Assembly: GCA_036172245.1 (NCBI GenBank)
Contig: JAYWIR010000166.1
Location: forward strand, 1 to 49,517
DNA: 49,517 nucleotides
Reading direction: 5' to 3'
Source: Raillietiella orientalis
Taxonomy: Eukaryota
Shown here: one piece after another, positions 1 through 37,279 of the stretch
Layout: each line of letters begins with the position of its first letter
How positions within the stretch are numbered: the stretch's first letter is position 1
The notes under the pieces: generated by a model
Seen by the model: only the letters and a program-made list of their open reading frames with translations
Told to the model about the DNA's origin: nothing
The model's database searches: none
Position numbers and translations under genes: made by a program

Positions 1-2900
1 GGTCTTTCTATCTTCCTCCCCGATCGCCGGAGCGCCTTCCGGAAGAAGAAGTCGCGAGACGTCCCGTTCCGGTAAATGCGCGCGTACAGGTAGGAGTAGA
101 ATTTGTTGAATAGGCCTTTTACCTAGTCGGGGGTGGAGTGCCCCGAACCCTGGTCGTCCAGTAAGCTGGCCGATTTGGATTGCCACGCCTGCCACTCGGC
201 TCCCGCACGGTATTCGGCTGGCCTGCGTACGTCTGGTGTTCGCGCGTAACATCGAGATTGTAAATACCATCTCTCGTTTCGCACGCTTTATCCAAACCCG
301 GCAGGCAGGAGGTTTATAGGGAACTCGTCGCAAAAATTTCGGACCGAGCGCTTAAAGCGAACCCAGTCCTGAAGCGTCTGCAAACTGAAACCTCCTATGA
401 ATCCGCGGAGATGCTCCGCGGCTTCCGGAAGTTTAAGCCAGTCCCCAGGTAAGCACCACACAGATGACCGCGGACCGCTATCGCGTGGGCGCACCTCGAG
501 TACGATCCGGTCATGGTCCGGCAGTTCCGGCAGTGACTTGCCGCGCCTGCGCACGCGTGAGCATAGGTGCTGGACAAGAAACACGTGATCAATGCTGTCG
601 GCAATTTCCGGATCTCCCTCGAACAAGTTTCGCGTGTGCATCTCTGCGCACAGCTCGTTCACTTGGTCCCGAAGTGTGTCGGACGCACCTGACAGCAGGC
701 GCAGGTTAACGTCACCTGCGATTAGGTGCGCTTTGCGCACTCTTACTTCGTCCAGATATTCGCGTCTCGGTAAGGAAGAAATCTCTTTTTGCCTTTGCCG
801 TTAGCGCGTCTCTGCCGCTTGGGGCGTACACGGTGGTAATGACCAGATCGATGGAGTCGGACCACCTGATAGTCACCTGCCCGACGCGAGCGGCACTATC
901 GAACCGTACGCCTTTTGCCGCAGGCTCGACAGCTGGACGAAGCAGGAACGCGACACCGCAAGATTCAACGGTGCCGCAACGCCACAGCAGCCGTCCATCC
1001 GAGATAAGCTCCTTCTCCGTTGCTTGATCTGCGGAGATCACGTGGATCTCTTGCAGAAGTACCAGGTCGAACGATGCCAGGGTGGAGGCCACGTCTCGTC
1101 TCTTGCCGTCCTCGCTTAGCCCGTTGACTTTCCAACAGGCAATTCGCAGACGGCGGCAATAGGCGATTGCAGGCATTAAGGCTTGGAACGTGGCGTTGCA
1201 GCACCTGTCAACAAACAGGTGGGAGGGACGAGTAAGGGGACCGCGGCCATCTGAGGCACTTGAAGCACCTGGGGCACAGACTCTACCCTTTCCGTCCCTC
1301 CGATGTCGCAGCGTGAGGTTACCTCACGAGGAGAGTACCCGGAGTTCCCCACTTGATTTCACGCTCGCTTCCCTCAATTATCTTACTTTCTTCCACGGAC
1401 GGGATAACTTTGCGGGTAGCCTTCTTCGTGCAATTGGCCTTCGTGCGGGAGGCCGCGATGCCGCAGGCTGTGTTTTCTGCCTCTGCGTCAGAGTTCGGAA
1501 TCTCCGAATTCTTGATCGAGGTCAGACGCCTTAAGGCCTTTTTCGTGGATTTAAGGGGACGCTGCAAGGACGCACCGAGCTCCTCCGCCGCTCGCAGAAA
1601 AGCGACGTCGTCGAGCATGCGTTCGACGACGGACGCCACCGCCAGGTCGATAGCCTCCGGCATTAATTCGGCGGAGGGCTGAAAGTCGGCAGCCACGAGT
1701 GCATTTTTGCCGCTCTTTTCGACCGCAGGAATGCGCTTGATGACGACAGAGCAGCGTTTGATATTTTCGCGACGCGGCAAATTCTCGCTGCGTTTCGCGA
1801 CATTTTTTTTGCTTCCTTGAGGCTTTCCTGCCTCTTGGATTTTACTACCTGCCATCCAGATTCCTGGACGTTCTGCTCGACCTTGTCCGAGTTTTCCAAG
1901 ATCTCGGTGGTGACCTTCACCTGGGGCACGATAGTTGTTTTTCGAGCGGCGGCTCTCTCTCCGGCTGCCTGAACTCGTCTTTTTCTCGCCGCGCGTTTTT
2001 TTGCATTCCGTGCGGACGCGACGCGGACTTTATTTTGCGGGCACACTGGAAGAGTGTGCCCGGGCTGCTTGCATTGCTCGCACTGCAAGTGGGGGCACCT
2101 TTTTTTCAGGGGACCTGAAGTGCTGCAATGCCCGCAGAAATGCGGCTTACCGACATACCAGATGTCAACGGGTTCGCCGTTGACCTCCAGCTTGTTTGGT
2201 AGGGACCAACCCTCGCGGACCGTGATGCGTGCGGAAGATATACCGCAATTCAGAAGATCGAACTCCCAAAACGGAGTAGGCCTTTTCCACAACGCGTAGA
2301 CGGTTCCGAATTTGATTAATTCCGTCCGGAAAGCTTCTTCGGCCATCCGGAAGGTGATTCCGAGGAGGTGGATCACGATAGATCTATCCTCCGTGATGAG
2401 GAGGAGCCGGCGATTCTTCAAAGGAACAGGTGTACGGAGCAAACGCTAGGCAAGACTTTCTTCTTTGCAAATCACATCAACGTACTGTCCATTACTCCTG
2501 ATAGTCATCGCGAAGAGCTCCTCCTGGGGTACTTTGAGGTAGTGCATCGCTTTCGAGAAAACGCGTGCACTCTCGAAGGAGTAAAGGTTGCCTACCTTGT
2601 AGAGTAGAGGAAGATTGTACCCCTCCTCCAGGTAGGCTTTCAACTTAGTTGCAGCCGCTTGCGTTGGCGCCGCAGCCGCGGAACTCCAGATTGTCCCTAG
2701 CGAGGGAGTCGCTTCTGTGAGGGCGGTTGCCCTTATATCCATTGATTCAGAAGGCGACATAGACGTCGCCCCCTCCTTAACATTGGTGGTGGTCCCAGGC
2801 ATTGCTTCGTAGCCACCACCGAATTTACTGGCCCACAAAAAAAAAAAGAAGAAAAATAAATCCACAAACGCTCAAGAGCGAAACAAAAACCCGTGCGCTC
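1..2900 (-). mobile_element. E1: Tx1/L1-clade non-LTR retrotransposon, 5' part (5'UTR, ORF1, APE domain of ORF2; 3' part runs off the window)
   Basis: ORF1 pieces 2446-2865, 1663-2442 (CGHCSTSGPLKKRC, CEQCKQPGHTLPVC) and 1319-1855. ORF2 starts at 1176 with APE motifs (IACWKVNGL, LLQEIH, TVYAPSG, GDVN, SIDHV, PDHD). Contains stops and frameshifts. The 5' end abuts plus-strand ORF2 sequence of E2. Confidence 0.9.
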
Positions 2901-3433
2901 TCGATCGAGGACTGGGACGATCTGAAAAGATCGGTCCGCGAGTTCTGCTGTCGGTTACCATTGCACCTGGTTCCCCGCGGCTTCGGGGAGGGTGTCGCGA
3001 ACAGCAGATCCTATCTGCTGGCGCGTACTTTCTCCCGATGTTCGGACGTGCGGTGTCTGGCGGAGTACAAAGCCTGGGCCGAGCGCCAGGTTTGACAGTC
3101 TGAAGCGGCTTGTCTGCTCGATGACGCTGGACAGGAATGCACGGCTGCAGCCGAAGTACACCGCGTAATCAAGCGCTACTACTTCTGGTTGTACGCGGAG
3201 GAGCTCACGGAATGCAGTCTCTTTGAGCTGCTTCTTCCGACGGGTAACCCTGCTATCGACGAAGAGGAACGCGACAGATTGGATTGGCCCTTCAAGGCGT
3301 AAGAAGTATCTTCCTCTATAGCGGGCCTGAAGAGGCGTAAGGCGCCTAGGGAGGATGGCCTGCCCGCGGATTTCTTTCAGTGCTTCCCGGCGGAGCTCGT
3401 CCCCCTGGTGCTAAGCCTTTTCTCGCTGATGCG
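2901..3433 (+). mobile_element. E2 left piece: Tx1-like ORF2 (APE-RT linker to KAPxEDGLP)
   Basis: Translates IEDWDDLKRSVREFCCRLPL...LKRRKAPREDGLPADFFQ...LFSLMR, homologous to E4 ORF2. Continues at 14858 after an 11-bp TSD. Confidence 0.88.
3423..3433 (+). repeat. Target-site duplication of E3, left copy (TCGCTGATGCG; right copy 14858-14868)
   Basis: Exact 11-bp direct repeat flanking E3. Joining the flanks restores the host reading ...LFSLMRETGDVPASFR... Confidence 0.9.
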
Positions 3434-5535
3434 TTTTAAACCCGGTTGCGCCGGGACGTTTATTTGTGAAAACGAACCACAATCCTCAAGGCAAATTCAT
3501 CCTTTCTAGACACAAGAAACGCCCATACAGAAAGTTCAGTTCAGAAAGATCACCGGCACGCAGGTTGCCTTCCAAAAGAAAGGAACAGAGGGAGAGGGAT
3601 ACAAAATAAACAAAACATAAGAAAACAAACAGAGAAACAGTGGAGGTTGGGGTCAGGGATCCATGGTAGTAAACGTTCCTGATCTTTCTAGAAGCGCTGT
3701 TTGACAATGGCGAATTCCCTGGAGACTTTCCTGCGCAGATGAGGCCACTTGACAGCTGCTTTCATAAGGTTCGCAGCGATTCTGGCGGCGTCCGTTCGCT
3801 GCGAGCTTTCTTCTAGTTTACGGCGAGCGATCACGATGGCGCGGATGCAAGAGATTGTTGCGATAACAGCGCATTTATTTAGTCCGTCTTTGCTGAATAA
3901 GCGTCGAAGCAGGTCTGTGGCAGTGTCCTGAGGACGACGAAGTGCCGAAGCAAGTCTCCGCCATAACTCCCGCAAGTCACTACACTCAAGGAGCAGGTGC
4001 GTAAGCGATTCTATCGCCCCGCACCTGAGGCAGTTCGGGGAGACGACTTTCCCTGTAACCAAGTTTCTGCGCTTATTGCACTAGAATCCCCAGTGCAGAA
4101 AAAGAAGAACATCCTGTTTCCATCAAAGCGGGAACACGGAGCTGTCCACACACAAAGAAGGGACCACAAGATATTCAGGGAATAATCCAAGAACCTCACT
4201 CTAACGAAGAAGTCCCTTTGACTGGTAACGAGGAGTGGCAGCGTCTAACAACACGCTCGTTCTGCAGCCGCTCAGCAGTCTTCCCACTTTTAGAATGCTG
4301 CAGAAGAACTCTCACCTTGCCGGTTGTCTACTGTCGTTGTTTGCCCTCAGAGCAGATAGCGCTGCGGCGATGAATGAGACGGCTACCTGGGACCAAAGCG
4401 ACCAGTCCTGTAGGATCACTCTTAGCGGTTTGCGTAAGAGGCCCTGTGAGGGTCGCAATTGCTCTGGGCGCACATCGAAAGTGAACGTCCAGTGCTCCAG
4501 AGCTACCTGCTGCCGAGGATTAAAATTGGAGGGGCGGCAGGAAATTCAGGAATGGGCTAACAGCAACGAGGACAAATGCCTCAGTGGGTAGCCAAATCCA
4601 GTTCTCCGGCGGAGGTTGCGCGGCAGCAACGAAAGCAATCCTGCACTGCCGACACATCGCTGGAGAATATGGCGAGCCGGAGCACACCAGTGACAAGACC
4701 ACAATTTCCCACATAAGGATAGAAGCCGGAATTGCACTTGCAGTCGAATCTTCTGGATGGTCAGGATTCTTAGTCCTGCGTCCTAGCATGGCGTTACCAA
4801 ATCTTTGAGGCGAACCCTGGATCGCGCAGCTCCCCGCATGACCTTACGTAGGAGACGCTGCGCCCGGAGTTTAACCACACAGGGAGGTGGGCAAACAAAA
4901 AATAAGGGGCGGAGGAGGGGGGGAAGGGAAGTGTTCCATATGCACGTTTTTTCGGCAAGACGAACTTGCCCACCAGGAACGGGCCTAGAGCCATCCCTGC
5001 CTTTTGAAGCCAGGCCGACCACGATTCAGACGAGCAGAAGTCGCCCAACGGTACGCCCAGGTACTTGAAGTAAATAAGCGTTGGGGTCCCCAGGCGGATC
5101 CAGTCGGCCTGTCCCTCCCACGACGCACCCACTGTCACGACGGAGCACTTCGCCCTGTTAACGCTCATGCTCGCTCCACGACGGATCAGCTCGAAGAAGT
5201 CTTGGACCGAGTCCGGAGGAGTAGACATGGGCAACAGAAGCAGAAGGTCGTCGGCGTTTGCTGCCGCGAACGGAGTTCACGGAGAGGCGCTGGGCAGTAC
5301 GGCCAGCGTCAGCCTGTACGCTTGTAGCACCAACTCGAAGTAGATGCTGAAGAACAACAGGTTTAAGCTATCGCCCTGCCTAATGCCTCTGCGCACGGCC
5401 ACTCCGTACACGCGGGAGCCACTGAAATACAAGTTGATAATCGCGTGGCGCTAGCAGGAGCGCAAGTACAGGAGAAGATGATTCGAAAGCCCAAGACGCT
5501 CCAGGAGCTCCAAGAGGCGTTCCTGGTTTAGGCAG

Positions 5536-5550
5536 TCGAACGCCTTGTGC
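5536..5550 (+). repeat. Target-site duplication of E4, left copy (TCGAACGCCTTGTGC; right copy TCGAATGCTTTGTGC at 10980-10994)
   Basis: 15-bp direct repeat with two C/T differences. On the minus strand both copies encode HKAF(D) of the E3 RT motif AVDLHKAFDCLNQ. Confidence 0.88.
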
Positions 5551-5643
5551 GCTCTAGGGTGGACGTGTTTTCTCGGTGCTCCTCGTGCCAGGAAGTCTCC
5601 CCCAGTGCAAGCGTCGTGTGGTTCAGTGGTCGATCAGGCAGCG

Positions 5644-7318
5644 ATGCCTGACGCGACCACCAGGAATGGCCAGGGGGCAGCGGCAACGCCGACCCCAGAG
5701 GCGATGGAGAGCCAGGGGGCGGCGGAAACGTCGCCCCCAGAGGCGATGGAGGTGAGGGCATCCGCATCAACAGAATCGGTCTTCTCTGCAGCGCGGGCGT
5801 GGAGCGCCGTTCTGTCGGCGCCATCGCCTGCAGCCGCGGCGGAATTGTCGGCCTATGTAGAGGAGGGGTACAACCCCTCATTGTTCTACAAGGTAGGCAA
5901 TTTATATTCTTTAGAGAGCGCGTGCGCCTTCTCGAAGGGCATGCGCGCTCTCGATGTGAAAGAGGAGGAGCTCAGCGCTATGACCATCCGCAGCGGGGGT
6001 CAGTACGTTGAGGTCATCTGCAAACATGCAGAGCTGGCCGAACGACTGCTTAAAACCCCCGTTGGGATGGGGACGCGCAGGCTTCTCCCCACTACGGCGG
6101 ACCGCAGCATGGTGGTCCACCTGTTAGGCGTGACGGCGCGAATGCGCAAAGATCAGGTTCGCGCCGCTTTGGAACAGTTTGGAACGGTCCACGCGCAGTG
6201 GTCGAAAGTTAGTCCTCTCGAGGACTACACGGGGCTGCAACACGGCCTCACTGCTGCGCGCGTGACCGTTCGGGAGGGCTGCACTCTTCCCCACAAACTG
6301 GTGGTCGAAGGCGAAACCGTCGAAATCTGGTATGTGGAAAAGCCGAAATACTGTGGCTTCTGCAATACGTCGGGCCACCTCAAAAAAAGGTGTCCCAATG
6401 TGCAGTGCCAAGTATGCGGCACAATGAGCCACACGAGGGAGGTGTGCCCAAAAGCAGCAGTGCGAATGGTTTACAAGAGAAACCTTAAAAAACGCGCATG
6501 GCTTCTGCAGAAAAGACTGGAGGCGAAAGCTGCCGCGAAGGCTGTGCCACCCGCGCCCAAGACCCAGGCCGCATCCGAGACCCCGGAGACCAACGCCGAA
6601 AAAGTTGAGGGAGCAGGCCAGGAGACTGAGTGGCAAGTGGCAACAGCCAAAAAATCAAAGAAGGAGAGGAGGATGGAAAAGAAAATCGCCTACCAACAGG
6701 AGAAGAAAGAGCAGGGTAGCGCGATAATTAAAGAGTGCAGCGTCGTTGTCGAACGCGTTCTCGATGTTGCCGAACGCTGCCGGAAAGAACTCGCCGCTAC
6801 CGACGACATCCCTCTGTTGACACAGTCAAAAGCGAGGGGAGCGAGCCGGCGGCGGCGTCCGTCATCGACACCACCATCGATGACGTAGCCTTCGCGCGAG
6901 CCGCGGAGGAGCTGGCAGCCGCGTTGCAGCCAGAACCCTTAAGGCAGGCAAGAAGGCCGTAAGGCGTCCGGCCTCCCCTGAGGAGTCCCCCACTTCCGAC
7001 CCCGAGGTGGAGGCCGGAAGCGGAGCCTCCGTTTCCACAGAACCGCGCAAGAAGGCTGGACGTAAGTCCACAAAGCCAAGGAAGCTCGTCTCCCCCGCCG
7101 AAGGGGAAGAGATGGCTTCCGCAAGCGAGGGTGCCATGAGCGTGGGAAACTCTCGGGAACCGTCGCCGGAGAGACTCCCACGCACGGACACGGAGGGGAT
7201 GGAGGGGGTGGAGGCCAAACAGGTGCCTCAGGTGCCTGAGAAGGCCAAAACCCTCATGGACATCCCGCCCGCCTCGCAAGAGGAGGGCTCCCCCACACCT
7301 TAATCTTCCAAGCAGTAA
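5644..7318 (+). pseudogene. E4 ORF1 (gag-like nucleic-acid chaperone with two CCHC zinc knuckles), disrupted near 6840-6960
   Basis: ATG at 5644 (homologous ATG in E5). CGFCNTSGHLKKRC and CQVCGTMSHTREVC. Basic/low-complexity C-terminus continues in ORF 7007-7303 after a frameshift and a stop. Confidence 0.85.
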
Positions 7319-10300
7319 TGCCGGGAATCTCCTCCTTCCGTCGTCTGCGCATCGCCGTTTGGAACGTGAACGGCATGACAGACGCCGGCAGGAGACGAGA
7401 CATGGCCGCCCTTCTGGAGTCCTACGACCTTGCGCTGCTGCAGGAGATCCACGTGATCTCTGCAGAACAAGCGCAAGAGATCGAACGGATCTCCGGAGGG
7501 CGGCTATGGTACAGGTGTGGGAGAGCGAAAAGTTGCGGTGTCGCCTACCTGCTTCGGCCAGCCGTCGAGGCCGCGGCTCGGGGCGTGCGGTTCGACGATC
7601 ACGGTCGTGTCGGCCAGCTGACTCTCAGGTGGTCCGACTCGATCGATCTGATCGTCACGAACGTGTACGCACCGAGCGGCAAGGACCTGATGAACAGGAG
7701 GGCGAGGAAAGAGTTTTTCCTTGCCCTCCGGCGAGACTGGCTGACCGAAGCAGGCGTGCGGAATGCCCATCTGGTTGCAGGCGATTTCAACGTTCGCCTG
7801 AAACCAGATGAGCAGAATCCCGAGCGTGACCTGGTCAACGAGGTGTGCATGGCGGTGCACACCTGTAATTTGTTGGCCAGTGCACCGGGGATGGAAGACA
7901 GCATTGACCACGTGTTTCTTGACGAGCACCTGTGCCCTCGCGTGGGCAGGCGCGGCAAGTTACCGTGCGAGCTGTCCGACCATCGCCCGCTAGTCCTCGA
8001 GATCCATCCGCGCGACAGGGGCCCCCCCTCGTCAGCGTGGCGTCTCCCAGGGGACTGGCTGAAGCTCCCGGACGCGGCGGAACATCTCCGCACGTTCATA
8101 CGGAGCTTCAGGCTGCGGACACTCCAGGATTGGGACCGCTTCAAGCGGTCGGTCCAGGAGTTCTGCGACCAGTTTCCTCTGCACCGCCTACCTACGGGTT
8201 TTGGGACCGGGGTCCGTAACGAACGAGCCTACCTGCAGGCCTGTCGTTACGCCAGGACCCCCGACATCCGCAGGCTGGCGGAATACAAAGCGGGAGCCTT
8301 GAGGCAAGCCTGGCAGTCCGGATCGGCCAGCTTACTGGACGATCAGGGCCAGGAGCACTCGGCACCTGCCCAAATGCGCGGCCTGCTGCGGAGTTACTAC
8401 TCTTCCTTGTATGCCAAAGCACCTCCGGAGAGAAACGTCTTACGACTCCTGCTTCCGGAAGGCGCTCCAACGATCGGGGAGGAGCAGAGAAAGACCCTCG
8501 ACGAGCCTTTCACGATGGACGAGATCCTCTCGGCCATCGGAAAGCTCAAGAGGCGAAAGGCTCCAGGGGAGGACGGACTGCCCGCGAAGTTTTATTAAAC
8601 TTTCGCGGCTGTGCTTACCCCCCTGGTACAGCAACTCACCTTGCTGATACGCGAAACAGGTGACGTTCGCGCCAACATCTTCATCAGCCCGGAACAGACA
8701 TATGCTGTTCCCGGGCGTAAAATGGAGGCGAACCTGTTCCACGCTTCTACCTGGCTAGAGCTCCAACATGAAAAGAGCTTGGTGCGCAGCCGAAATTCCG
8801 GTGAGTGCGCCGGCAAGGGGTTGGATGGTCGGGTGGGGGAGGGAGCCCTTACGGTCGCAATCGACTTGCGGAAAGCATTCGATTGCGTCGACCAGAATCT
8901 CCTTCTGGAGCTTCTTGAACGCTTGGGCTTCCCTGCCTAATTAGTGGCATATCTGCGCTCATGCTGGCGCGACGCGCTCATCAATGTTACTTTTAGCGGG
9001 CAGACCGTGCACGGCGTGCCGGTGCGGCGTGGAATCCGGCAGGGAGACAGCCTGAGCCCCTCGCTCTTCAGTACCTACTTTGAGTTTGTACTGAGAGCGT
9101 CCAGGGGAACTCTGGCGCACCTGCCGTACCACTGTGCCGGTACGCCGGCCGTTTCAGCATACGCGGACGACCTTCTGCTGCTGCTCCCTGTGTCCACCCC
9201 GGCTGCGGCGGTCGAGGAGTACTTCGACCTGCTGCATCGGGGAACCGGACTTACGGTGAACACGGCGAAGTCGTCCGTGATGCCAGTTGGTGTGGCGTGG
9301 GCAGGGCAGCAGGACTGAGTCCGTTCGGGGATCTTCACGGTGAGGTACTTTAAGTACCTTTATGTGCTGTTGGGGGACTACTCCCCTGCGGAAGCGTGGT
9401 CCGGCTGCCTCCAAAAAGTAGAGACGGCGATCGGCCCGTTCCGAGGCGGCAGGTTTTTCCTGCCTGAACGGGCCGCTGTTTGGAACACGTTCGCGGCTCC
9501 TCTCCTCCGTCCCCTGTTTCTTGTTTACCCCTTCACAGAGAGAATAAAAAAGCGGACGAAGGACCCCCTCCGTATCGCCCTTTGGGGCAACGGGAGGGCC
9601 GGATTCCGCTTAAAGAATTTGTGCGCTCCTCGTCGGGATGGTAATCTGGGCCTCCTGACGCTGGAGCTGCTGGAGCTTCAGCTTCAGTTTTGCTTGTCAG
9701 CACTCGTTCCAGAGTTGTGGTGCACCTGTTGGTGCGTCCCTGCAAGTCTCCTTCTCTAGCAAGCCACCGGCAAGACGAGACTGACGTCGTTTCTTGAACT
9801 CCGTTGCCGCGTCAACCGATGCGGACTCCAGCTACGGAGTGTGGCTGCGCTGTATCGGAAAAACCCAGGATTGCTCACCTGTCGCCCGTTGAGCGGAAGT
9901 GCCTGGTTGCAGGAAACCGTTTGAACGTGGGGACAGTTCGGCATGCAACGCTCCCAACAGGAACGAAGGTTCGTGTTTGGGGGTTACAGAAGTTGCACGC
10001 TTCGCCAGATCCTGGAGGATCCAAAGAAGAGAGCGTGGGCAGGAAGAACCCCCTTCGCTGCTGCGCTGCCATCCCTGATGGAAGATCTAGACAGCGATGT
10101 TGCGGCGAAGTGGGTGGTTACAGTAACAATCTCCGGAATAGAGAAGAAGATAGGAGAGTGGAAGACGGGCCAGTTAACAGACGTTGCTACCCCGATTACG
10201 CCTCCCAATGGACTTCTGCGCTCGGGCGCGCTGCTTGATGTTCCCATTTTACATCTGAAGTTTCCCCCGGTGCTCGTTAACACTTTCGCCCTCCCCTTAA

Positions 10301-10749
10301 AATGGCAGGAGTCGGCTCTCCTGTTGCAGCACTGGGGACTCCCCTGCGACGCCCGCCGACAGCACTGGACCTGGGGAGCGGTGGACCCCTATTGCGTCAG
10401 GTGTGGGGAACGGGAGTGCCTTCCCCACCTGCTAGTGGACAGTGTTGCCCTTCGGCCCCTTTGGTTTCGCTTTGCCGCGGCCATCGGAATCCCCTGCGGC
10501 AATCCCAGGGACGCACTGAAAGCCCTCTTCGTTGCCGACGCCCTTCGGCCAGCGGCCTCGCTAGCAGCTTTGTGCTGCCTACGCGGGATCGTCACCGCTT
10601 GGAGCAAGGCTACGGGAGGACAGCGCGAACAGGTTGCCATCCTGCCAGCCTCCCAGTTCCTGAGGAGGGCGTCTCGATGGCCCCACCTGGATTCAGGAAT
10701 ACAGAAGGAGCTTGCCGGCATCCTGCAAAGGATGCAACGGCCCCATTAG
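7318..10749 (+). pseudogene. E4 ORF2: APE endonuclease + reverse transcriptase + C-terminal Cys motif, with premature stops and frameshifts
   Basis: IAVWNVNG, LLQEIH, NVYAP, GDFN, SIDHV, SDH (APE). KAPGEDGLP, DLRKAFDCV, GIRQGDSLSPSLF, AYADDL, KYL (RT). CVRCGERECLPHLLVDS. Stops at 8596, 8938, 9316 and 9757. Confidence 0.93.
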
Positions 10750-13700
10750 CAACTGTGATTCCTTCCCTTACCCTCCCAACTTTTCTTTTCTTTTTTTTGT
10801 TTTGTTTTTTGTTTTTCTTCTTCCCCCTGCTGCCGTGGTGGACCGTACCGGTCTGCAAACCGGTGACCCGGCAGGCTGTGTTTTTTTTTTCGTGCGTGGC
10901 TGGAGCAATGGCCCAGCCACCGCACGTCTTTGTAAAAGTTTATTTTACAATAAACGCCTCGGCGAAATCCGGGTTAAAATCGAATGCTTTGTGCAAATCT
11001 ACTGCTAGTGCCAAGGCTCCCGGCTTTTATCCCGTCCGTCCGCACTGGCGCTGGCAGTTGTAAGAAGGTCTAGCCGATGTTTTGCTGTCCGCCGCAACGC
11101 GCTCTTGGAGCTGCCACCAGATGCGCACCATAAGATGGTTCGAATCCATGAATCTACCCGGTACAGCGTGAGGTTGCTCCGGGCTTACCACGGACTCCGC
11201 GACTTCCCCTAGGCGCCTGATCCACTGCTTCGAAAACAACTTGACGTCCCTATTCAGAAACGTGATCGGACGCCAGTTTTTGAGATGGCGCGGATCTCCT
11301 CCTTTCGGGAGGAGACGCACTTTCGCTAAGCGGAAGGAAGAAGTGACATCTCCCGTCACCTTTATCAGCGTCGAGGGTCTGAGCACCAGTGGTGCGACTT
11401 CCGCCGCGAAGCTCTGATAGAAATCCGAGGGCAGCCCGTCGTCACCTGGAGTGATCCGTTTCTTGAGTCCTGCGATAGCGGAAGAAACTTCCTCCGACGA
11501 GAAGAACTTGTCGAGACGGGCGCGTTTCTCCTCGCCGATGCCGTGTGCACCTCACAGCAGAAGCAGTTCCGAGAGTATGCTCTCCGTCTGGGATTTGGCG
11601 TAGAGCAAGGAGAAATGACGCTTCAGTGATCGCCGAACTTCGGCAGGAGCCGTGCATTCTCGGTATTGGTTGTCGAGCAGAATAGGCGCTCCAGACTGCC
11701 AGACCTTGTGCTCGGCCCTCGCCTTGTTCTCTGCGAGGTGCCGCACTACCCTACGGCTAGAGAAGTTGCGCGCCTGCAGTAATTCTTTGCTATTGGCCAC
11801 GCCTTCTCCAAAGCGGCGCGGTAGGAAGCGCAGGGGGAACTGGTCGCAAAACTCCCGAACCGATCTTTTAAGGTGGTCCTAGTCTTTGAGCTGCCGGATG
11901 GCAAAGCCGCGTAGGAACTGGCGAAGATGTTCAACCGCCTCCGGATGACTGAGTTAATCCGCCAACATCCTCCAAACATTGTTCGGAGGTCCGTTGCTTG
12001 GCGGGAGTAGCTCGAACTCAAGCCTATCATGGTCCGATAACGTGGACGGCACCCTGTCTCTCCTTCCCACTTGCGAGAGTAGGTGTTCATCAAGGTAGAC
12101 GTGATCCACGCACCTTTCCAGTCCAACTCGCCGGCTTCCAAGTTACGCGCGTACACCGAAGCGCATGCCTCTTCCACGCACGACCGTTACGCCGGAGACC
12201 TCGTCCCGTTGCAAAGCAGGTGGACGTTGTATTCCCCTGCGACGAGATGTGACACTCTGGCTCCGGAGTTCCTGAGGCATTGGCTCTCCAGCACATCAAA
12301 GAACTCGATTCTTTTGGCGCGCCGATGAAAGCTGCTCGGCGCGTTGACGTTCGTCAGGACAAGTTCTATTAAATCTCACCACTTGAGTACAAATTGGCTT
12401 TTTCGCCCTTCCTGGTCGAATCGAACGCTGCGCACCGCTCCCGTCATCCTACTATGTACGAGTCAACCGACTCCGTACGATTGTGCAGAACCTTCTCGCC
12501 AGTATAGGGTGCCACTCGCGCGCCGTTCAATTTCGGTAACCTCCGCGTCGGAGATGTGTTGCATCTCCTGAAGGATCGCCAAATCGAAATGTCGCAGGGT
12601 GTCTGACACGCCGCGCCTTTTTCCGTCCCTGCCCAGCCCGTTGACGTTCCAACAGGCTACGCTGAACCGACGAAGAGAGGCGACTTCCTGCATTAATTCT
12701 GGGAAGATGAGAACAGGTTTCTCGCCATGTCCGGTGAGTGGTCACGAGACAGAACGGCAGATTTTGGAGAGGGCACATCTCCATTCGAAGCCTCCCTGCT
12801 TGTTGCCGGTCGCTCAAAGGTGAGGTCCATCTCCTCCTCTTTGCTCCCCGGCAAGAGATTTTCTTCGGCAACTACGCGCTTGCGGGTCTTCGAGAGGCGA
12901 TTGCGCGGTTTCGGGCGGGTTTCGCGCTGTGTGCTCATTCTGCGGACTTTGGATCAGAATCCGACAGTCGAGCGCTTGCCAGGCACTGCTTCTGTTTCCC
13001 AAAATTAAGGAAATCATTGGATGCCTGTTTCTTAGCGCTTTTTGCTACTGCGGCTGGCACTTTGGTCCTTTTAGCCGCAGTAGCAGCTTCCCGCTCCATC
13101 AGCGATAGGACGACTGCACAGGAAGAAAGAATCGCAATGTTTTTCTGGGAAGGTTTCGCGGGTTTCTTTCGCCCACTTACCTTCACACAGAGCTGCGAAG
13201 ACCTTGATGGTTTCTTTCTAATGATCTTTCTCACCTGCATCCAGCCTTCTTCCTTCGCGTCGCAGTTATCTTTGCCATCCTGAGATGGCGCTGCTTCCAC
13301 GGTTGTAAGAGGCGTTGCCTTGGCTGACTCTTGGAGTGCTGCCTCCACGCAGGCGTAAGCAACTCCTTTAGCGATCGCGAGAGGCGCTGCCTCTTTCAGA
13401 TCGGAGGATTCGCGCGTTGCCTTTGCGACCGCTGGGGGCACTGCTGTGGCGGTGGTGCTCGCATTAGCAGTTTCTTCCTTGACCGCAGTAGGCGCTGCGT
13501 CCGTGCACGATAGCTGAGGGTTTGCCGGCTGTTTCGTCGCGGCACTCAGCCCCTGGAGCATTTTAGCCGCGGTTGGTTTATCCGGCACGGAGTTCTTTGC
13601 CCGTCGGGGCGATTTTCCCGAATCGGGCGAGCGACCGCATTCCTCGCCACTTGCCGAGGCCTTGGTTGGAGGCTTCGCGGTCGCGATGCCGACAGTAGAA

Positions 13701-14857
13701 AACTTCTTGCCCTTCTGCGCACTCTCTTTTACTCTCAAAAATTCGCTGCGAGATCTCGGTGAAAGTTCGCATTCTTCGCGAGCTTCCGTCCGCTCGCTAG
13801 CTTGGGGCTTCTCCGCGACGAGTTTTTTTATGTTTCCCTCCCCTGTTTTATGGAGGAAGGAAGAGTTTTCTGGGCATGCGCGCTTGCGGTTTTAGCAACG
13901 CTCTTCTAAGTTTTGAGGTTTCTTTTCCCTCGATTCGCGGCGTTTATTTCGCGATGCGAAACGCTCTTCGTTCTTTCGCTTTTCGTTTTTTAGAAGGAGC
14001 TCCGGGCACGTTTGTTTTGTGTGCCCGGGCTCGTGGCAGTAAAGGCAAGTGGCCGAGGGACACTTCGTAAGGTGGTGACCCTTTTTCTCGCATTCCGCGC
14101 ATACAAGCGTTTGCCTCGCATACCACAAGCGGACGGTCATTCCATCCACCTGCGATCGCGTGGGCATTGCCCGGCGATCCGCCATCGTCACTCGCACTTG
14201 CGCGAGACCGCTGTGATGGTCTTCAAAACCCTCAGAAGGGTTTGGCAACCTCCAAAGCCCGTGAATGGGGGCGAATTTTTCAAGGGACTCCAAGACCTGG
14301 CTGTCCGAAAGGCACTTGGCCACTCCACTCAGCCGGACAACGAACTTTTGATCCGCAGTGGTGGGGAGTATTTTCTGCCCACGAATGTGCAGCGGCGTGT
14401 GCAGCAAACGCTGCGTAAGGAGAGCGTCCTTACTGGACACATCCCAGTAGCCGCATTCACTCATGGGCATGATGGACTCCAGCTGGCCTTTCTGAACTCC
14501 AATCCGTTGGGGTTCCTGGACAAACTCGCGCCCAATCCGCTCAAACATAAGGACACTCACCTTATACCTGAGTGCAGACGTGTACCCATTTGCTACATAA
14601 GCCTGCAGCTCAGGGCTGTAGGGCGAAGGTCCTAGTGTAGCCGCTAGGGCAGCGACCTGGGCGAACCTCCTCGCCGTCGGCGAAGACAGTGGCTCCTTTC
14701 TGGCAGCCGAAACCGCCATCTTAGGAGCAGGTACCGTTCCCTTCTTGCGGCAGATGTTCTTCTTTGCTCCCATTGCAGCACAGAAGCACAGCAGAACAAA
14801 AACTCACAAGAGTCAGCCTACCGCGTAGCGACGCAAAAGCACGTCCGTACGCGACCG

Positions 14858-17495
14858 TCGCTGATGCGGGAGACGGGAGATGTTCCCGCTTCTTTCCGCT
14901 CAGCAAAGGTGCGGTTCCTGCCGAAAGGCGGTGATTTGCGCCACCTCAGCAACTGGCGTCCGATCACCTTGGTGAATTCAGACGTTAAGTTGTTCTTCAA
15001 ACTTTGGGTCGCGTGGCTGGGGAGAATCGCAGCGTCCCTGTTGAGTTCGAAGGAGACGTATGCTGTTCCGGGGCGGTCCATGGACGCGAATCTCTTCTCC
15101 GCGCGAACATGGTTCGACCTGCAGCAGCGCGTGTCGCAGCAGAGCCAGGCAGCCAAAATCTCCGCTGCTAAAGGTAAGAGGCGGTTTTCAAGGCACGATG
15201 GAACGCCGGGGCTTTAGCGGTAGCCGTCGATCCTTGCAAATCGTTCGACAGCGTAAACCAGGACCTCCTTCTGGAGCTTTTGGGATGCTCAGGCCTCCCG
15301 ACGCACCTCATTGCCTACTTGCGCTTCTTCTGGCGCCACGCGTTATGCTGTATCTCTTTCAGCGGGCGCCACGTGTATGGCGTTCCCATATGGCGGGGTA
15401 TCAGGCAGGGAGACACCTTAAGCCCCCTGCTCTTCAGCATCTTCTTTGAGTTGTTGCTGAGGGCGTAGAGGCTGACGCTGGCCAGCCTGCCGAGCTCCTG
15501 TCCGGGAACACCGGTCGTGGCCGCATATGCTGACGACCTTTTCCTGTTGCTGCCCATGTCCATCCCGGCCTCCAGGCTCGAGGACTTCTTCGAGCTCATT
15601 CGTAGGGGGGCGAGCCTGTGCGTCAACAGGACGAAATCAACCGTTGTACTGTTGGCTTTACTTGGGAGGAACAGTACGACTGGATCCGCCTGGGGATTTC
15701 CACAGGCAGGTACTTTAAGTACCTTGGCGTTCCCTTCGGCGCCTTTTGTCCATCAGAAGCGTGGTCGGACTGCCTTCACTAGGCCGACTGCTCTGGGCCC
15801 GTTTCAAGGCGGCAGGTTCCTCCTGTCGGAACGGGCCTTCGTATGGAACATTTTCGTTGCCCCTGTCCTCCGCTAACTTTTTTTTTGTTTGTCATCCTCC
15901 CTACTCGGCTAAGTGTCTGGCGCAACGCCTGTTGCGAAACGCCTTGTGGGTACCGGCGATGTCTAGGATACGCCTCAAGGACTTGGCGGATCCTCGGCGG
16001 GATGTAGGCTTGGGCATCCTGACGCTGGAGTGGATCGGACTGCTAGTGCAGTTCCGCATGCTGGCACTTTGCGCCCAGCTCTGGACTACTCCCTGGTGTG
16101 CTCCAGCGCGGCTGCTGCTTCGAAGCTGCACGGGTGGCGACGGATTACGTTCGTTGCATGTGCGCACGGAGCGCGCCCAGAGAGCATTCGGCTTCCCTTT
16201 GAAGCAGCTAGCCACGCTTCTGGAAAAGCATGAGTGGATCTCCTGCCGGCCGACGAACTTCAACGGCTGGAAGCAGGAAGCCTTATCGTCCTGGGCAGCG
16301 CAACAGGATGTGTCCCGTCTGGAACTCCGTTGTGCGAACCTTTCCCCATACTGTACAGTGGGGGAGGTGCTTTAAGACCAGGACCAGTCACACTCCTAGC
16401 CGCTACGCTCCTCGACGAAGCACAGTCTGCACTGATGGTTCGAGACGACAGTGACCTGCCGTCGAGGTTGGAGGTCGCCTGCGAAATCGTTGCCGAAACG
16501 CGACTGCTGTGCGGCTGGAGGACGTGCGAGGTAGCAGACGCTGCCACGCCATGCCTTCGTGCCAAGGGACTTCTTCGATGCAGCGAGCTTTTCGAGGTGC
16601 CCACCGTTGAACTTGTGGTCGCTTCTGCGTGTTTTGACGCGACTGTCTTCCCCCTTGGGTGGAGACAAGACACTTTTCTGCTGGAGCATCGGGGTTTGTA
16701 CTGCAACCACCGCGCGCACCTGATTTCCGGGGGAGTTGCGTCCCCGGAATGTGTCAAATGCGGAGCGGTGGAATTGCTTCCGGTTTTGCTGTTTGAATGC
16801 GGTGCCCTCCAGGAGCTGTGGCGGCGGCTGTTCTCAGCGCTCCTGCACCCCGGACACACCGCACTGGATTGGAAGCGCCGCTTCTTCACGCGTGGCGAAC
16901 TCTCTCTCTGAGCGGTCGTCGCAATGATCTGCTTACCATTGCCAAGATCCTCTTTCTTCATTCTGAGGACACCAAGAACTCGAAACAACCCAAAAGCCAA
17001 AGTACCCATAAACAAAGAGCATCATCCTTCGTTCCCGTACCATTGCCAAGATCCTCAGTCTTCATCCTGAGAACATCAAGACCTCGAAACAACCCAACAG
17101 CCAAAGTACCCATAAACAAAGAGCATCAGCCGTCCGCGCCATTGTCAGGGCCCGCCACGTATTGCAGATGCTAGTAGTGCCAACATCGGTGCCCGACACT
17201 GCAGCTTTCAACCTGCAAATGGCTGCCGGGTGGCCACACCTTGGAGCAGAAGTAAGGACGGATATCGGCTGCATTTACTGCCGGTTCTGAGAATAGGAAC
17301 AGATGAACTTCAGACCCCTATCCCCACCCTCCCACCCAATTTATTTATTCATTGTCTTCTCCCTCATGTTCCCAACTCTCAGTTTGCCCAACCTGCGTGG
17401 CGGGGAATCTACTCCCCATCTTTTGTTTTTTTTGCCTGGGAACACAGTTTCCAGATGTTTTTATCAATGAGCGTCTCGGCACAACCGCGTAATAA
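14858..17495 (+). mobile_element. E2 right piece: RT to 3' end; inserted antisense in E5 ORF1
   Basis: NWRPITLVNSDVK, GIRQGDTLSPLLF, AYADDLF, CVKCGAVELLPVLLFEC. 3'UTR and degenerate end AATGAGCGTCTCGGCACAACCGCGTAATAA are followed directly by minus-strand ORF1 of E5. Confidence 0.88.
16934..17128 (+). repeat. Two-copy ~104-bp tandem repeat inserted in the E2 ORF2 C-terminus
   Basis: TACCATTGCCAAGATCCTC...CCAAAGTACCCATAAACAAAGAGCATCA at 16934 and 17038. The flanks rejoin as AVVAMIC..VRAIVRAR. Confidence 0.8.
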
Positions 17496-18653
17496 ACAAC
17501 GACGCTGAACTCTTTAATTGTCGTGCTACCCTGCTCTTTCTTCTTTTGTTGGTAGGCGATTGTTTTCTCCATCCTTCTCTCCTTCTTTGATTTTTTGGCC
17601 GTTGCCACCTGCCACCCATGCTCAAGTCCGGATCCCTGGACTTTTTCGGCGTTGTTCCCCGGGGTCTCGGGTCCGACCTTGGCCTTGGGCGCGAGTGGCG
17701 CAGCCTTCGCGGCAGCTTTCGCCGCCAGCCTTTTCTGCAGCAACTGAGCGCGTTTTTTAAGATTTCTCTTTAAAAGCACCCGCAGTGTTGCTTTTGGGCA
17801 CACCTCCCTCGTCTGAGCCATTGTGCCGCATACTTGGCACTGCACGTTGGGACACCTCCTTTTGAGGTATCCCGCCGTATTGCAGAAGCCGCAGTATTTC
17901 GGCTTCCCCACATACCATCGGTCGACGGTTTCGCCATCGACCACCAGTTTGTGGAAAAGAGTGCAGCCCTCCCAAACGGTCACGCAAGCAGCCGTGAGGT
18001 CGTGCTGCAGCCTCGTGTTGTCTTGAAAAGGACTAACTTTTGACCACTGCGCGTGGACCGTTCCGTATTCCTCCAACGCGGCGCGAACCTGTTCCTTCCG
18101 GATCCGCAAGGTCACGCCTAATAGGTTGACCACTATGCTGCGGTCCGCCGTAATGGGGAGGAGCCTGCGCGTTTTCATCACCACGGGGGTTTTAAGCAGT
18201 CGTTGGGCCATCCCTGCATGTTTGCAGATGACCCCAACGTACTGACCCCCGCTGCGGATGGTCATAGCGCTGAGCTCCTCCTCTTTCACATCGAGAGCGC
18301 GCATGCCCTTCGAGAAGGCACGCGCGCTCTCTAAAGAATACAAATTGCGTGCCTTGTAGATAAGCGAAGGGTTACACCCCTCTTCTACATAGGCCGACAA
18401 TTCCGCCGCCGCTGCAGGCGATGGCGGCGAAACGACGGCGCTCCACGCCCGCGCTGCAGAGGGGACCGAATCTGTGGGGGCGGACGCCCCCACCTCCATC
18501 GCCTCTGGGGGCGACGTTGCCGCTGCCCCCTGCAATCCATGGTGTTTGCGTAAGGCATCTCTGTCTGATCGACCACCGAACCACACAACGCTAGCGATAG
18601 AGAAGACTTCCTGGCACGAAAAGCACTGAGGAAGCACGTCCGCCCTCGAGAGC
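17496..18653 (-). mobile_element. E5: 5'UTR + most of ORF1 of a close sister of E4; inserted antisense in E6 RT
   Basis: ORF 17345-18736 aligns residue-by-residue with E4 ORF1 (ATG at 18558). 5' end GCTCTCGAGGGCGGACGTG versus E4 GCTCTAGGGTGGACGTG. The right flank reads (H)KAFECVDH on the plus strand. Confidence 0.9.
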
Positions 18654-20913
18654 ATAAGGCGTTTGAGTGCGTGGACCACGATCTTTTTTTGGATCTTTTG
18701 GGTCGCATGGGTTTGGCACCCTCCTTGATCAATCACCTGCGCTCTTGCTAGCGCAGTGCATCATAAACCTTTCGTTCAGCTGTCAAAATGTGTAAGGCAT
18801 GCAGATGCGCCGCGGGTTAAGGCAGGGCGATAGCTTTAGTCCCCTGATCTTTGGCGCCTACTACGATTTGGTGCTATGAGCGTACAGGGCGATTTCGGTT
18901 GCCTTCTTGATCTCGTGTCACGGCACGCCCGCAGCAGTAGCGTAGGCCAACGATTTTCTGCTGATGTTACCCATGTCCACCACGGCAGCCGCAGTCGACG
19001 ATTTGTTTGATCAGTGAAGCCGCGAAATGGGACTGCAGCTGAACAAGGCAATGTCGTCGGTGGTGGCGGTTGGTGCGACGTGGGTTGAACGGCCTGACTG
19101 GATCAGCTTGGGGATCCCCGCGGACAGGTCCCTGAAGTACCATGACGTGACGTTGGGTGATTTCTGCCCGTTAGAATATGGTCAGATTTTCTCCAGAAGG
19201 TAGAGCTGGCGATCGACCCATTCCTCGAAGGCAGGTTCCTCTTGCAGCAAAGGGCCGTTGTATGGAACGCGTTCGCAGCTCCCATCCTTCGCCCCAAGCT
19301 TTTTGTTTGACACGTTTCACCCATTTCAAGAAGAGAACAAAGGATGTACTCTGCATCGCCCTCTGGGGCAAGGGGAGACCTAGATTGCCTCTGAAGGACT
19401 TAAGCGCTCCGCGTCGGGACGGTGGTCTTTGCCTCTTGACGCTGAAGCGCCTGGACATACAGCTGCAATGGCTTACTTAGCCATCGCAGCGAAGTTGTGG
19501 AGCACCCCTTGGTGCGTTCTGTCCGCCTTCTTGCCAGCTGTGTCTCCAGGACTCAAGGACTAGCGTGTTTTCTTCTGTGTTTCTGCCGGGAGATGCGAAT
19601 ATGCGGCCTGTTCCTTGCACTCATGTCCACCTTGGCTAAGGAGAACAGCTGGATAGTAGTCAATCTTGCCAAGCTCCTCCGCATGGCTAGAGGAGAGTGC
19701 TAGCACGTGGGCGAAGATACATGTGAGGAGCAACGAAACGTAAAACTTCTGGCGAATCGGCATCTTCTCCCGGCGCACTCTGCGTGAAACTCTTGAATTT
19801 CCAGAGGATTGCAGGTAGGCGGAAGGGTCATCTTTTGCTTTGGCGTTCCCCTTCCACCAAAGGGTGCTTTACAACAGCCGGAAGCAGAGTTTTCAAGTCT
19901 GCTACCATGTCGCAGGTAGAGAGAAGTCGATGAGCGCCGGACTCGGTGGGAATTCTGTTATTTCCCCTGAGTTGCAACTGGGCGGAGACGACCTCCCTTG
20001 CTGCGTCGCTGCCCTTCCTAAGGAGGGAGCGTCACGGCAGCCGATTGCCGAGGTGGAAAGTCTCCTGTTGGATCGCAGGCAGCGAGAAGATAATGAGGGG
20101 CCTCACCATGGGTCAACTGGCGGACGTCACAATCCCGATCACCCAGCCGCGAGGACTTAAGAAATGGGGCGAGCTGCTCACCGTCCCAATGGATGAGCTC
20201 AAGTGGCCCTCGGTGATGAACGACTTCAGGATCCTTCCCCTGAAGTTGCCAGAGTCGGCGTTGCTGCTGTTATACTAGGGTTTACCCTGCAACGCATGTG
20301 GCGTCAACTGGACAATGGACGCAATGTATCTTGCGTGTGCCAGGTGTGGGGATCGGGAATCGCTCCTTCACCTCATCGTTGATAGTACTGCTTTCCAACT
20401 CCTTTGGGAACGGCTGGGGATGACCCTCGGGCTCCCAATGGGCAGTGCCCCTAGATACGTTTACCGTCACCTCTTCGTGCGGGACGCTCTGCATCCAGCC
20501 GCTGCCCTCGCAGAACTATGCTGCGTTCGAGGCATCGTGGCGGACTGGAGCGATGCCAATGACGCAGATCGAGACCCGAACGAGAGGAATGCCATCCAGC
20601 CTGCAATGCTCTTCATGCAGATAGCTGCCTGATGACCCCATCTTGGACCATTGCTAATGAACCTCGAGGGCTTCCTTCGACGGATGGGCCCTCCTCTCAG
20701 TAATGAGTGTTCCCTTCCTCTCCCAACTAATTCTTTTGGTTCCTTTATTTTTTATTTTTTATTTTTTTTTCCCCCCATCCCTTTTCACTGCCGAGGAGTG
20801 TTACCCCGGGCTGCGTACCGGCATCCCGACAGGTCCAGTGTCTATGGCCGCGTGTGGGGCCTGGTACCTCGGAATGTAGAGTTTTTGAATAAACGTTCCG
20901 GGCGTTCCCGGGT
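18654..20913 (+). mobile_element. E6: decayed Tx1-like element, RT motif KAFD to 3' end
   Basis: KAFECVDHDL, RQGDS, LKDLSAPRRDGGL, CARCGDRESLLHLIVDS. T-rich 3'UTR; ends AATAAACGTTCCGGGCGTTCCCGGGT. Confidence 0.85.
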
Positions 20914-21097
20914 GGCAACAGCATATCCGCGGGGTATGCGGCGCAGAGATCTGCTCCCAGAACTCGCGAACTGACACCTTCTTGCGGTCCGAGTCGTCAA
21001 GATTCCTGGAGATGACGCCTCCCAGGAATTGGCAAAGATGTTCATCCGCACCTGAGATGCGCTTGCACTCCCTGAGTAGATGCCACGCCCTGGATGG
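20914..21097 (-). mobile_element. E7: Tx1-like ORF2 fragment just downstream of APE (host of E6; possibly the same element as E10)
   Basis: Minus strand reads PSRAWHLLRECKRISGADEHLCQFL...DDSDRKKVSVREFWEQ, homologous to E4 SSAWRLPGDWLKLPDAAEHLRTFI...QDWDRFKRSVQEFCDQ. Confidence 0.75.
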
Positions 21098-21397
21098 TTT
21101 TTCACCCTGGTGAGCCGAGGCTTTTATTATGAAGATGTTTTACATCAAAAAAAAATTCTGTAATAAAGTCTTTTTTGTCAATATGTTTTTCCTTTTTCGG
21201 TCAGCACAAAAGTTGTGACTGTCTTGGGGCACTTGCTGTTACCGATCATGAGGCCGATTAGGTCGACCACACTGGTGCAGGGGCGGGAAAAAAAATTACG
21301 AAAAAAAAAGCCTGGAAGGGTAATGTTTTTTGGGAGAGGTGGAAAGAAACGGGTTTACGGTAGGCCGTAAGGAGGCGTCTGCATCCTGTTTCGGATG
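21098..21397 (-). mobile_element. E8: ~300-bp 3'-end fragment of a second Tx1-like subfamily
   Basis: Last ORF2 codons IRNRMQTPPYGLP*, T-rich UTR, end AATAAAAGCCTCGGCTCACCAGGGTGAAAAA. Confidence 0.75.
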
Positions 21398-22270
21398 TTT
21401 TCACCTGGGTAAGTAAGGGCTTTTATTATTTTAAAAAAACAAAATTATAATTATTAATTGCAGTCGATTGAGTTTTCATTGTTTTTGTGTTCCTGTCGGA
21501 ACACATTTACGTATTGTTCTGTACTTGTTTACCGACTTGAGTGCCGGTAAGGTCTACTCAACTCGCGAAGGGGACGGAAAAAAGAAAAAAAATGCTTGAG
21601 GGACATTGTTTATGGGGAGAGGGAGGGAAGGGAAGGGATCCAGGGGGAGGCCTCTGCATCTGGTTCCGCATGCTAACAAGTGCTGGCAGAATTTTCCTCA
21701 GTCAGCGACAACGGGGAGCCTTCTCAATAAAGATCACCGGCCAGTGAATGGCATTCGGACTGCTGTGGCCTCTTATGGACGCGTTCCACTTGTCCAGTAT
21801 TCCTCGTATGCAGCAGAGAACTGCAACACACGCGGCACTTGGCAGGGAGTTCCGCATCAAGAAACAACGAAAAATGTTTCTGGGGTCGCCCACCGCTACG
21901 TTTATGACCGACGAGAGTCGATCCCACGTTAGACCGAGGTCAACACATTCGATTAGTAAGTGGGGGAAGGTCTCCCTTTCACCGCACTCTGCTCATTTGG
22001 CATCCACGATCCCTAAGGTCCAGTGAGACAGGCGTGCTCTGCTTAGAAGTCCACAATGGAGCAGAAGCAACGCCGTCTCCTGCCTTTTCAGGGGGAGGGT
22101 GCCGTTATGCCAAGACGCTGTGGCTACTTCACCTCCTCCAGAGGCACGTAGAGCAGCTCGCCCCAGAGTACAAGTCCATTCGGCGGTACACTCTGGGTTC
22201 TAGCGTCCGCTAGTTCCCAGGACGTCCACGCCTTCATCCGTTTTCTCCTGCCTCCGATAAGGCTGGACAC
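21398..22270 (-). mobile_element. E9: 3' fragment (ORF2 C-terminus + 3'UTR) of the second subfamily
   Basis: HWTLGIVDAK*AECGERETFPHLL, AACVAVLCCIRGILDKW. End AATAAAAGCCCTTACTTACCCAGGTGAAAA. The 5' boundary is approximate. Confidence 0.78.
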
Positions 22271-26213: not shown

Positions 26214-26762
26214 GCAGTAGAAGGATCCTATGTGACAGGGAAGAGCTTGCGCCCGTTAACCGTAATGAAGGTGTTCAGCAAGCAAAGCGCCAGACATGCA
26301 TCTCTGCAAGTAAGCTGCACTTTCTGAGCCCCTTTAACGACAAAGAGGCCCTCTAGGTCTTCCTCACTCACCTTCAGCCGTTGCAGCTCCTCTTCGAAGG
26401 AGCGTGCAATTCGTTCGTCGAACACACTGACTACCTTGTGGACCAAAAACGCTTGTAACCACTGGCCTTGTAGGCATTCAGCTCCGCAAGTGCAGCCGTG
26501 GATGGTGTTGCAACGACGGCACGCCATCTCTTCGACGATGGCGAAGAGGGTCTCGAAGGGGCAGTTGCCTCTGATTCTGATGAGGCAGTTGCCCCGGATT
26601 CCGATGAGGCAGATGCCCTACTTCTATAAGTGGAGGAGAGCAAGTCGCCTTTCCACCCCAATCTCAATCGCAGTGTCATCAGGAGTTTCTGCCATGGGAC
26701 ACTGTCTAACTCTCACAACACACAAACTCAAGAAATGCTTTCCACCGACAAGTCCGTAGAGC
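26214..26762 (-). mobile_element. E12: 5'UTR + ORF1 N-terminus; inserted antisense in E13
   Basis: 5' end GCTCTACGGACTTG. MAETPDDTAIEIG, AALAELNAYKASGY, LLNTFITVNGRKLFPVT. Confidence 0.75.
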
Positions 26763-32175: not shown

Positions 32176-32189
32176 AGCCGCCAGGATTA

Positions 32190-35445: not shown

Positions 35446-35449
35446 TCCG

Positions 35450-37250: not shown

Positions 37251-37279
37251 GGGCACAACGGCACTCCAATAACGATTAG

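Follow-up and report, generated by a model that had tools for sequence, protein, structure and literature searches.

Two sister LINE copies inserted antisense at the same position within the reverse transcriptase codons of two diverged LINEs of Raillietiella orientalis

The DNA considered in this study is a stretch of 49,517 nucleotides from Raillietiella orientalis (GenBank assembly GCA_036172245.1, contig JAYWIR010000166.1, positions 1 to 49,517 of the forward strand), which I will refer to as the window. Its first 29.6 kb consist almost exclusively of retrotransposons resembling long interspersed nuclear elements (LINEs), nested in one another, as judged by a tblastx map made with one of them, E4, as the query. 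Two of these elements, E4 and its sister E5, occupy the same position in the same orientation within the codons for motif A of reverse transcriptase (RT), each in a different host LINE (E3 and E6, respectively). The coordinates of all features are collected in Table 1.

E4 has the structure of a LINE: a domain of the apurinic/apyrimidinic endonuclease type (APE) followed by an RT in one open reading frame (ORF), ends free of terminal repeats (the longest direct repeat being an internal tandem of 42 nt), and an insertion flanked by a target-site duplication (TSD). The lengths of TSDs vary, that around E4 being 15 nt and that around its host E3 being 11 nt. In Pfam, ORF2 of E4 matches Exo_endo_phos (8.9e-14, positions 7318-8595) and RVT_1 (1e-9, positions 8944-9315). 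The element ends in AATAAACG, a short hairpin, and TTAAAA, without poly(A). E4 itself is dead. Three-frame translation gives five in-frame stops in ORF2 (at 8596, 8938, 9316, 9757 and 9922), the frame is shifted past ORF1, and the N-terminal part of the RT has lost about 50 codons to an internal deletion at ~8670. The 42-nt tandem duplication lies in the N-terminal part of ORF1 (5669-5751, the two units 90% alike) and is absent from E5.

The closest protein of solved structure to E4 is human L1 ORF2p (6.7e-15, in an alignment that takes in the APE as well as the N-terminal extension of the RT). The 20 solved chains with E-values up to 0.01 include L1-EN and L1 ORF2p and neither the R1Bm nor the TRAS1 endonuclease, a comparison made by sequence search and not by phylogeny. 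The protein atlas matches for E4 were generic eukaryotic APE clusters only, and there was no match to Rfam anywhere in the window.

The two ends of E4 are abutted by copies of a 15-mer that differ from each other at two positions (Table 1). Its repetition at both ends marks a TSD and proves insertion; a 15-mer of this kind would turn up at any one specified place with a probability of about 9e-7. The first bases of the element, from 5551, are GCTCTAGGG. In minus-strand translation, GALALAVDLHKAF(D) is read from the right flank and HKAFDCLNQERLLELLERLGLS from the left, and the reading frame of host E3 is thus unbroken once E4 is taken out. Within D-L-H-K-A-F-D, the duplicated stretch begins with the third base of the Leu codon and runs to the second base of the second Asp codon. 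I take the first D of the general motif, D-L-x-K-A-F-D, to be the first catalytic Asp of RT (searches of solved structures with motif A fragments gave nothing usable for placing it), and the insertion lies two codons past the D of D-L-H, not on that Asp codon.

The same 15-nt site is found in the second host, E6, directly at the 5' end of E5, where the minus strand reads TCAAACGCCTTATGC followed by TCTCGAGGG. E6 at the site translates as HKAFECVDHDLFLDLLGRMGL, and its reading continues as ..CVDHDLFLDLLGRMGL... Both junction strings quoted in the initial annotation of this DNA, which had placed the junctions within about 2 nt of each other, are present in the window: the 5' junctions of E4 and E5 fall on the identical nucleotide in an ungapped alignment and are 2 nt apart if the alignment is gapped. 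Both elements are antisense to their hosts, so orientation and junction position are shared. At 17495/17496 the 3' end of a further element, E2, interrupts E5, whose own 3' junction and TSD lie outside the window. The shared site is written here as TCRAAYGCYTTRTGC. Allowing up to three mismatches, there are five matches to the 15-mer in 49.5 kb, of which three are the sites at 5536-5550, 10980-10994 and 18652-18666. If insertion into a 5.4-kb host were uniform, the same base on the same strand would be hit with a probability of about 9e-5 per pair. The coincidence noted in the initial annotation is real and non-random.

Of 1152 aligned bases, E4 and E5 share 994 (86.3%), and the only gap in the alignment, 43 nt long, is due to the tandem duplication in E4. 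The description of their 5' untranslated region (UTR) and ORF1 as near-identical was therefore too strong, but their status as sisters was borne out: seven elements in the window retain their 5' regions, and among the 21 pairs they form, E4/E5 is the sole closely related pair, as well as the pair that shares a site. In each of the remaining 20 pairs, identity over a long stretch does not exceed 65%, or the matches are short or absent. Over 344 codons of ORF1 there are no stops in either element, the differences at codon positions 1, 2 and 3 number 40, 32 and 62, and dN/dS is 0.42. Some of the divergence between E4 and E5 accordingly dates from a time when their lineages were active, with the site retained as the family changed. 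By these comparisons the two elements are products of one evolving, active family.

The hosts resemble each other far less. The flanks of the E4 site and the E5 site are identical at 162 of 275 positions (58.9%), the site itself at 13 of 15, and the elements at 86.3%, with the step falling exactly at the junction. In the 19 nt upstream of the site, only 11 are alike between the hosts. Compared over 2076 columns (about 2.1 kb) that run from the motif to the 3' ends, E3 and E6 agree at 50.3%, in keeping with their earlier description as different and diverged. E3 is nearer to E2 (59%) and E6 nearer to E4 (59%). Their neighbours differ as well, E3 sitting in E2 and E6 in another fragment; the part of E6 upstream of the site must lie past the left edge of the window. 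The initial annotation had itself raised the prospect that the two flanks are a duplication of one ancestral insertion, and the comparison of flanks at 59% and hosts at 50% with elements at 86% excludes it. Judged from the alignments, the insertions of E4 and E5 are two independent events.

Table 1. Positions of E4, E5, their hosts and other elements in the window
Feature	Position	Strand	Description	Basis
E4	5551-10979	+	Decayed full-length LINE with APE and RT, inside host E3 (-); the only complete LINE in the first 29.6 kb	
E4 5' UTR	5551-5643	+	93 nt	
E4 ORF1	5644-6882	+	Two CCHC knuckles (C-x2-C-x4-H-x4-C); frameshift after ORF1	Three-frame translation
E4 ORF2	start 7318	+	APE ~7318-8000, RT ~8600-9500, Cys/His motif near 10390	
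E4 uninterrupted motif DLRKAFD	8863-8883	+	Homologous 15-mer TCGAATGCTTTCCGC on minus strand	
E4 TSD, left copy TCGAACGCCTTGTGC	5536-5550	+	Antisense of host E3 codons (L)HKAF(D)	
E4 TSD, right copy TCGAATGCTTTGTGC	10980-10994	+	13/15 identical to left copy (2 mismatches)	
E5	18651 down to 17496	-	First 1.15 kb (5' UTR and ORF1) of a sister of E4	
Same 15-nt site in E6, TCAAACGCCTTATGC (minus strand)	18652-18666	-	Antisense of HKAF(E); abuts 5' end of E5	
Host E3, 3' part	3434-5550	-	HKAFD of RT to 3' end ..CCGGGTTTAAAA	tblastx map, 3' end motif, sequence
Host E3, 5' part	10980-14857	-	5' UTR, ORF1, APE, and RT as far as AVDLHKAFD	tblastx map, sequence
Host E6, 3' part	18652-20921	+	HKAFE to 3' end	tblastx map
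E2, right part	14858-17495	+	Host of E3, guest in E5; left part at ~2890-3433	
E2 uninterrupted motif DPCKSFD	15229-15249	+		
E9 uninterrupted motif DLRKAFD	24133-24153	+	E9 is probably E11 of the initial annotation	
3' module ends	10949-10979, 3434-3464, 20888-20921, 26184-26215, 27348-27378			
Second-family copies	21098-21399, 21400-~22300, 28385-~29200	-	5'-truncated, sense to hosts; two in tandem	

The two insertions are part of a larger structure. From E4 rightward the nest runs E4(+) in E3(-) in E2(+) in E5(-) in E6(+) in a minus-strand fragment at 20922-21097, and further right there are E10(-) in E9(+) in E11(-) in E12(+) in E14(-); in addition, E1(-) lies in E2(+). The arrangement fits a single nest about ten levels deep (window positions 1-28400), on the condition that the 20922-21097 fragment is a piece of E10. 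All ten pairs of guest and host in this group of LINEs, whose members end in ..TTAAAA or something close to it, are antisense (one-sided 0.001), and the strand alternates with depth. Eight of the ten pairs have one junction in the window, and their host assignments rest on the nesting argument. The ten insertions fall at nine host positions, six of them between ~8100 and ~8900 in E4 coordinates, a span picked after the data had been seen, so that the value of 0.001 is only indicative.

E3 in E2 is a second antisense insertion for which both junctions are documented: an 11-nt TSD, TCGCTGATGCG, lies at 3423-3433 and 14858-14868, at codons ..SLMR|ETGD.. in the N-terminal part of the RT. All six guests of the group with a visible 5' junction begin at a homologous 5' UTR motif (GGACGTG..TTT), and none is 5'-truncated. 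Diverged families also have a 3' terminal module in common, made up of AATAAACG, a 5-bp hairpin (CCCGG/CCGGG) and (T)TAAAA. The five pairs of this putative hairpin are conserved, with no compensatory changes in six sequences.

The explanation of the shared site that I consider moderately probable is that E4 and E5 are separate retrotransposition products of one L1/Tx1-like family of APE LINEs, which uses target-primed reverse transcription to insert at one fixed, or at least strongly preferred, site. The first nick would fall in the sense strand of the host after ..GCGTTCGA, within the second Asp codon of D-L-H-K-A-F-D, and synthesis of cDNA would be primed at that nick from the 3' end of the element (the hairpin and TTAAAA, without poly(A)). 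A second cut, 15 nt away in the opposite strand, would fall within the Leu codon. The outcome would be a full-length copy, antisense to the host, with a 15-nt duplication on either side, both the duplication and the orientation following from the positions and strands of the nicks. Since motif A is among the most conserved coding stretches shared by diverged LINEs, the same 15 nt (13 of 15) would be available in hosts that are only 50% identical.

Recognition of the 15-nt sequence is the best explanation for two independent hits on the same nucleotide in hosts that have little else in common. The recognising part might be the APE, another DNA-binding domain of ORF2p, or a read-through 3' RNA that includes the downstream half-site and anneals to the target. 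The idea of such annealing comes from work on R1 and R2. Site-specificity would then be a property of the whole E4/E5 family.

The benefit to the family is likely to be a conserved, multicopy and harmless landing site, with the disabling of the host copy a by-product. The initial annotation had seen in this pair a subfamily that targets the RT codons of its relatives and so disables competitors. What stands of that proposal is that independent events took place at the same site in the same orientation; specificity of the subfamily at large would be an extrapolation from the two of two copies seen. That competitors are disabled for advantage is an unproven interpretation which fits no better than a safe haven, and a safe-haven, multicopy target, as in R1 and Tx1, would be the simpler account of the same facts.

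The initial annotation had also suggested that the residue before Lys could be part of the specificity. Both occupied hosts do have HKAF, and E4 itself (8863-8883) and the element at 24133-24153, probably the E11 of that annotation, have RKAF. With the motif of E2 included, the occupied sites are HKAF and HKAF and the unoccupied sites RKAF, RKAF and CKSF (Fisher p ~0.1), numbers too small for a test.

A number of observations weigh against a fixed site recognised by the family as a whole. There are only two copies, and of E5 just the 5' junction is visible. Searches of proteins and metagenomes yielded no further copies of the E4/E5 family, so that the specificity amounts to two out of two copies in the window. 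An 11-mer of the site (AACGCCTTGTG) is also present, unoccupied, at 15938 in E2. The other eight nested insertions lie at eight different host positions, yet all are antisense, so orientation must depend in part on something other than a single fixed recognition site; nicking of the strand exposed by transcription of the host is one possibility as the cause of the general antisense rule. Finally, the label L1-like signifies the best matches among solved structures, and membership in the Tx1 or R1 clade, for which specificity of the APE is known, would be no more than putative.

The searches for further copies were as follows. The N-terminal part of ORF2, compared with longer proteins, gave three distant matches (21-34% identity) among 7999 scored candidates. 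ORF1 with its upstream extension matched none of 8000 scored proteins of near its length, and residues 1-170 of ORF1 matched none of 1242 shorter candidates. In metagenome contigs, ORF1 gave 88 pattern matches, of which none was confirmed, and an exact 22-mer from the most conserved stretch of ORF1 gave no matches. One public sequencing run (X1) contained 17% of the sampled words, and at 80% likeness it provided 310 short contigs that map to 5300-11200, including 25 with a likeness of 99% or more. The LINE group is therefore present in that run, which says nothing on flanks.

A possible though doubtful alternative to sequence recognition is a loose preference of the nick for a few bases, motif A being simply the one place where these bases are conserved between diverged hosts in a locus made up almost wholly of LINEs; copies of the family would then be spread over many sites across the genome. 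The small number of cases (two) allows this, as does the variety of positions at which other insertions of the nest are found, and with only 11 of 19 upstream nucleotides alike, the sequence recognised is either short or contained within the 15 nt. A loose preference accounts poorly, however, for junctions that are nucleotide-identical for the cuts on both strands, as far as they are visible, or for the fact that the only pair from the same family is the very pair that coincides. The core 8-mer, AACGCCTT, is moreover uncommon, with just four occurrences in 49.5 kb, two of which are the occupied sites.

An extension of site recognition to the entire nest seems to me unlikely. It would have a guild of LINE families living inside one another, each with its own fixed antisense site in ORF2. 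The site of E4/E5 would be (L)HKAF(D), their own RKAFD would escape, and fresh copies would be hit preferentially, giving rise to alternating nests that serve at once as safe haven and competitor knockout.

The orientation of the nest lends itself to another account, which I nonetheless regard as quite improbable, namely that guests insert into the displaced sense strand of transcribed young relatives (for example, at R-loops), the site shared by E4 and E5 being a local hot spot. Such strand-directed targeting agrees with the ten of ten antisense pairs and with each guest residing in the next-younger element of a chain of about ten levels, but by itself it leaves the identity of the nucleotide unexplained. 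A variant that invokes RNA homology gains no real support, the similarity of guest to host at the sites being only within the top 11-21% of windows. Targeting by homology between guest RNA and host DNA was also considered in its own right and set aside as unsupported, since the similarity ranked in the top 11-14% for E4 in E3 and in the top 16-41% for E3 in E2.

That one insertion was later duplicated with its flank, or that the assembly is chimeric, is very hard to credit: E4 and E5 do lie ~11-13 kb apart, inverted, in one repeat nest prone to rearrangement and misassembly, but the flanks are 59% and the elements 86% alike with the step exactly at the site, the hosts differ in their neighbours and agree at 50% over 2.1 kb, a dN/dS of 0.42 is unlike decay following duplication, and there is no N in the window.

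Recognition of a fixed site by the E4/E5 family may be set beside what is known of other LINEs. Known site-specific LINEs are aimed at rRNA, snRNA and tRNA genes, at telomeric and simple repeats, and at one DNA transposon, and Zepp of Chlorella is a self-nesting or region-targeted LINE. In excerpts from PMC1950540, R1Bm (inserted in 28S rDNA) and Tx1L (inside the transposon Tx1D) are APE LINEs with highly specific endonucleases, and an excerpt from PMC4640811 places transposons among the listed targets of target-specific LINEs. Tx1L of Xenopus laevis (Tx1 clade), as portrayed in the former, resembles E4 in being a LINE with ORF1, APE and RT, in its fixed orientation, and in having its site inside another mobile element. 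Unlike the DNA transposon Tx1D, the target of E4 and E5 would be the RT motif A codons of related LINEs, across families that are 50% identical, albeit with n=2.

R1Bm and the R1 clade, TRAS/SART, R2 and Utopia share with E4/E5 a conserved multicopy target, precise junctions, fixed orientation and the logic of a safe haven, as far as the excerpts from PMC1950540 and PMC4640811 describe them. The targets of R1, TRAS, SART, R2 and Utopia are host genes or simple repeats, whereas that of E4/E5 is the catalytic motif of another parasite. Celine, from poplar centromeres, is portrayed in an excerpt from PMC11288735 as a LINE that, like those of this nest, piles into its own kind and into other retroelements; unlike E4/E5, it has a unique TSD for each copy and is directed to a chromatin domain instead of one nucleotide position (same excerpt). 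Human L1 differs in nicking at a short consensus (TTTT/AA), in carrying a poly(A) tail and in having mostly 5'-truncated copies, as against the hairpin and TTAAAA, the absence of poly(A), and the 5' motif in six of six visible guests in the group of E4.

In the full-text literature, which does not cover subscription journals or Repbase Reports, I found no report of a LINE aimed at the RT codons of other LINEs. If the present reading is true, a LINE landing on the catalytic-motif codons of other LINEs would constitute a new type of target and a tangible instance of transposon families competing with one another, and it would account for the origin of deep nests that obey a single rule of orientation. 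It would also offer a naturally programmable APE or ORF2p with a 15-nt staggered cut. If specificity on the part of the whole family fails, there are still two independent hits at one nucleotide, along with a caution on inferring specificity from one locus.

The window contains other repeats besides the group to which E4 belongs. Another LINE family is characterised by an AT-rich 3' UTR and by copies ending in ..GGTGAAAA(A) or ..CCAGGTGAAAA(A). The flanks at the 3' ends of its copies start with CCATCC, CATCCG and CATGCG, a hint of a short target preference. The region ~30900-45900 has a lower GC content (~40%) and is made up of repeats ~3-4 kb long that are 89-97% identical to one another (32186-35286 and 42726-45827, for instance, at 97%) and that carry a repeated ORF of ~133 aa. 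Beyond it, and outside the main nest, positions 46049-47079 on the plus strand hold an ORF1-like sequence with CCHC knuckles whose protein is 34-51% identical to that of E4 ORF1.

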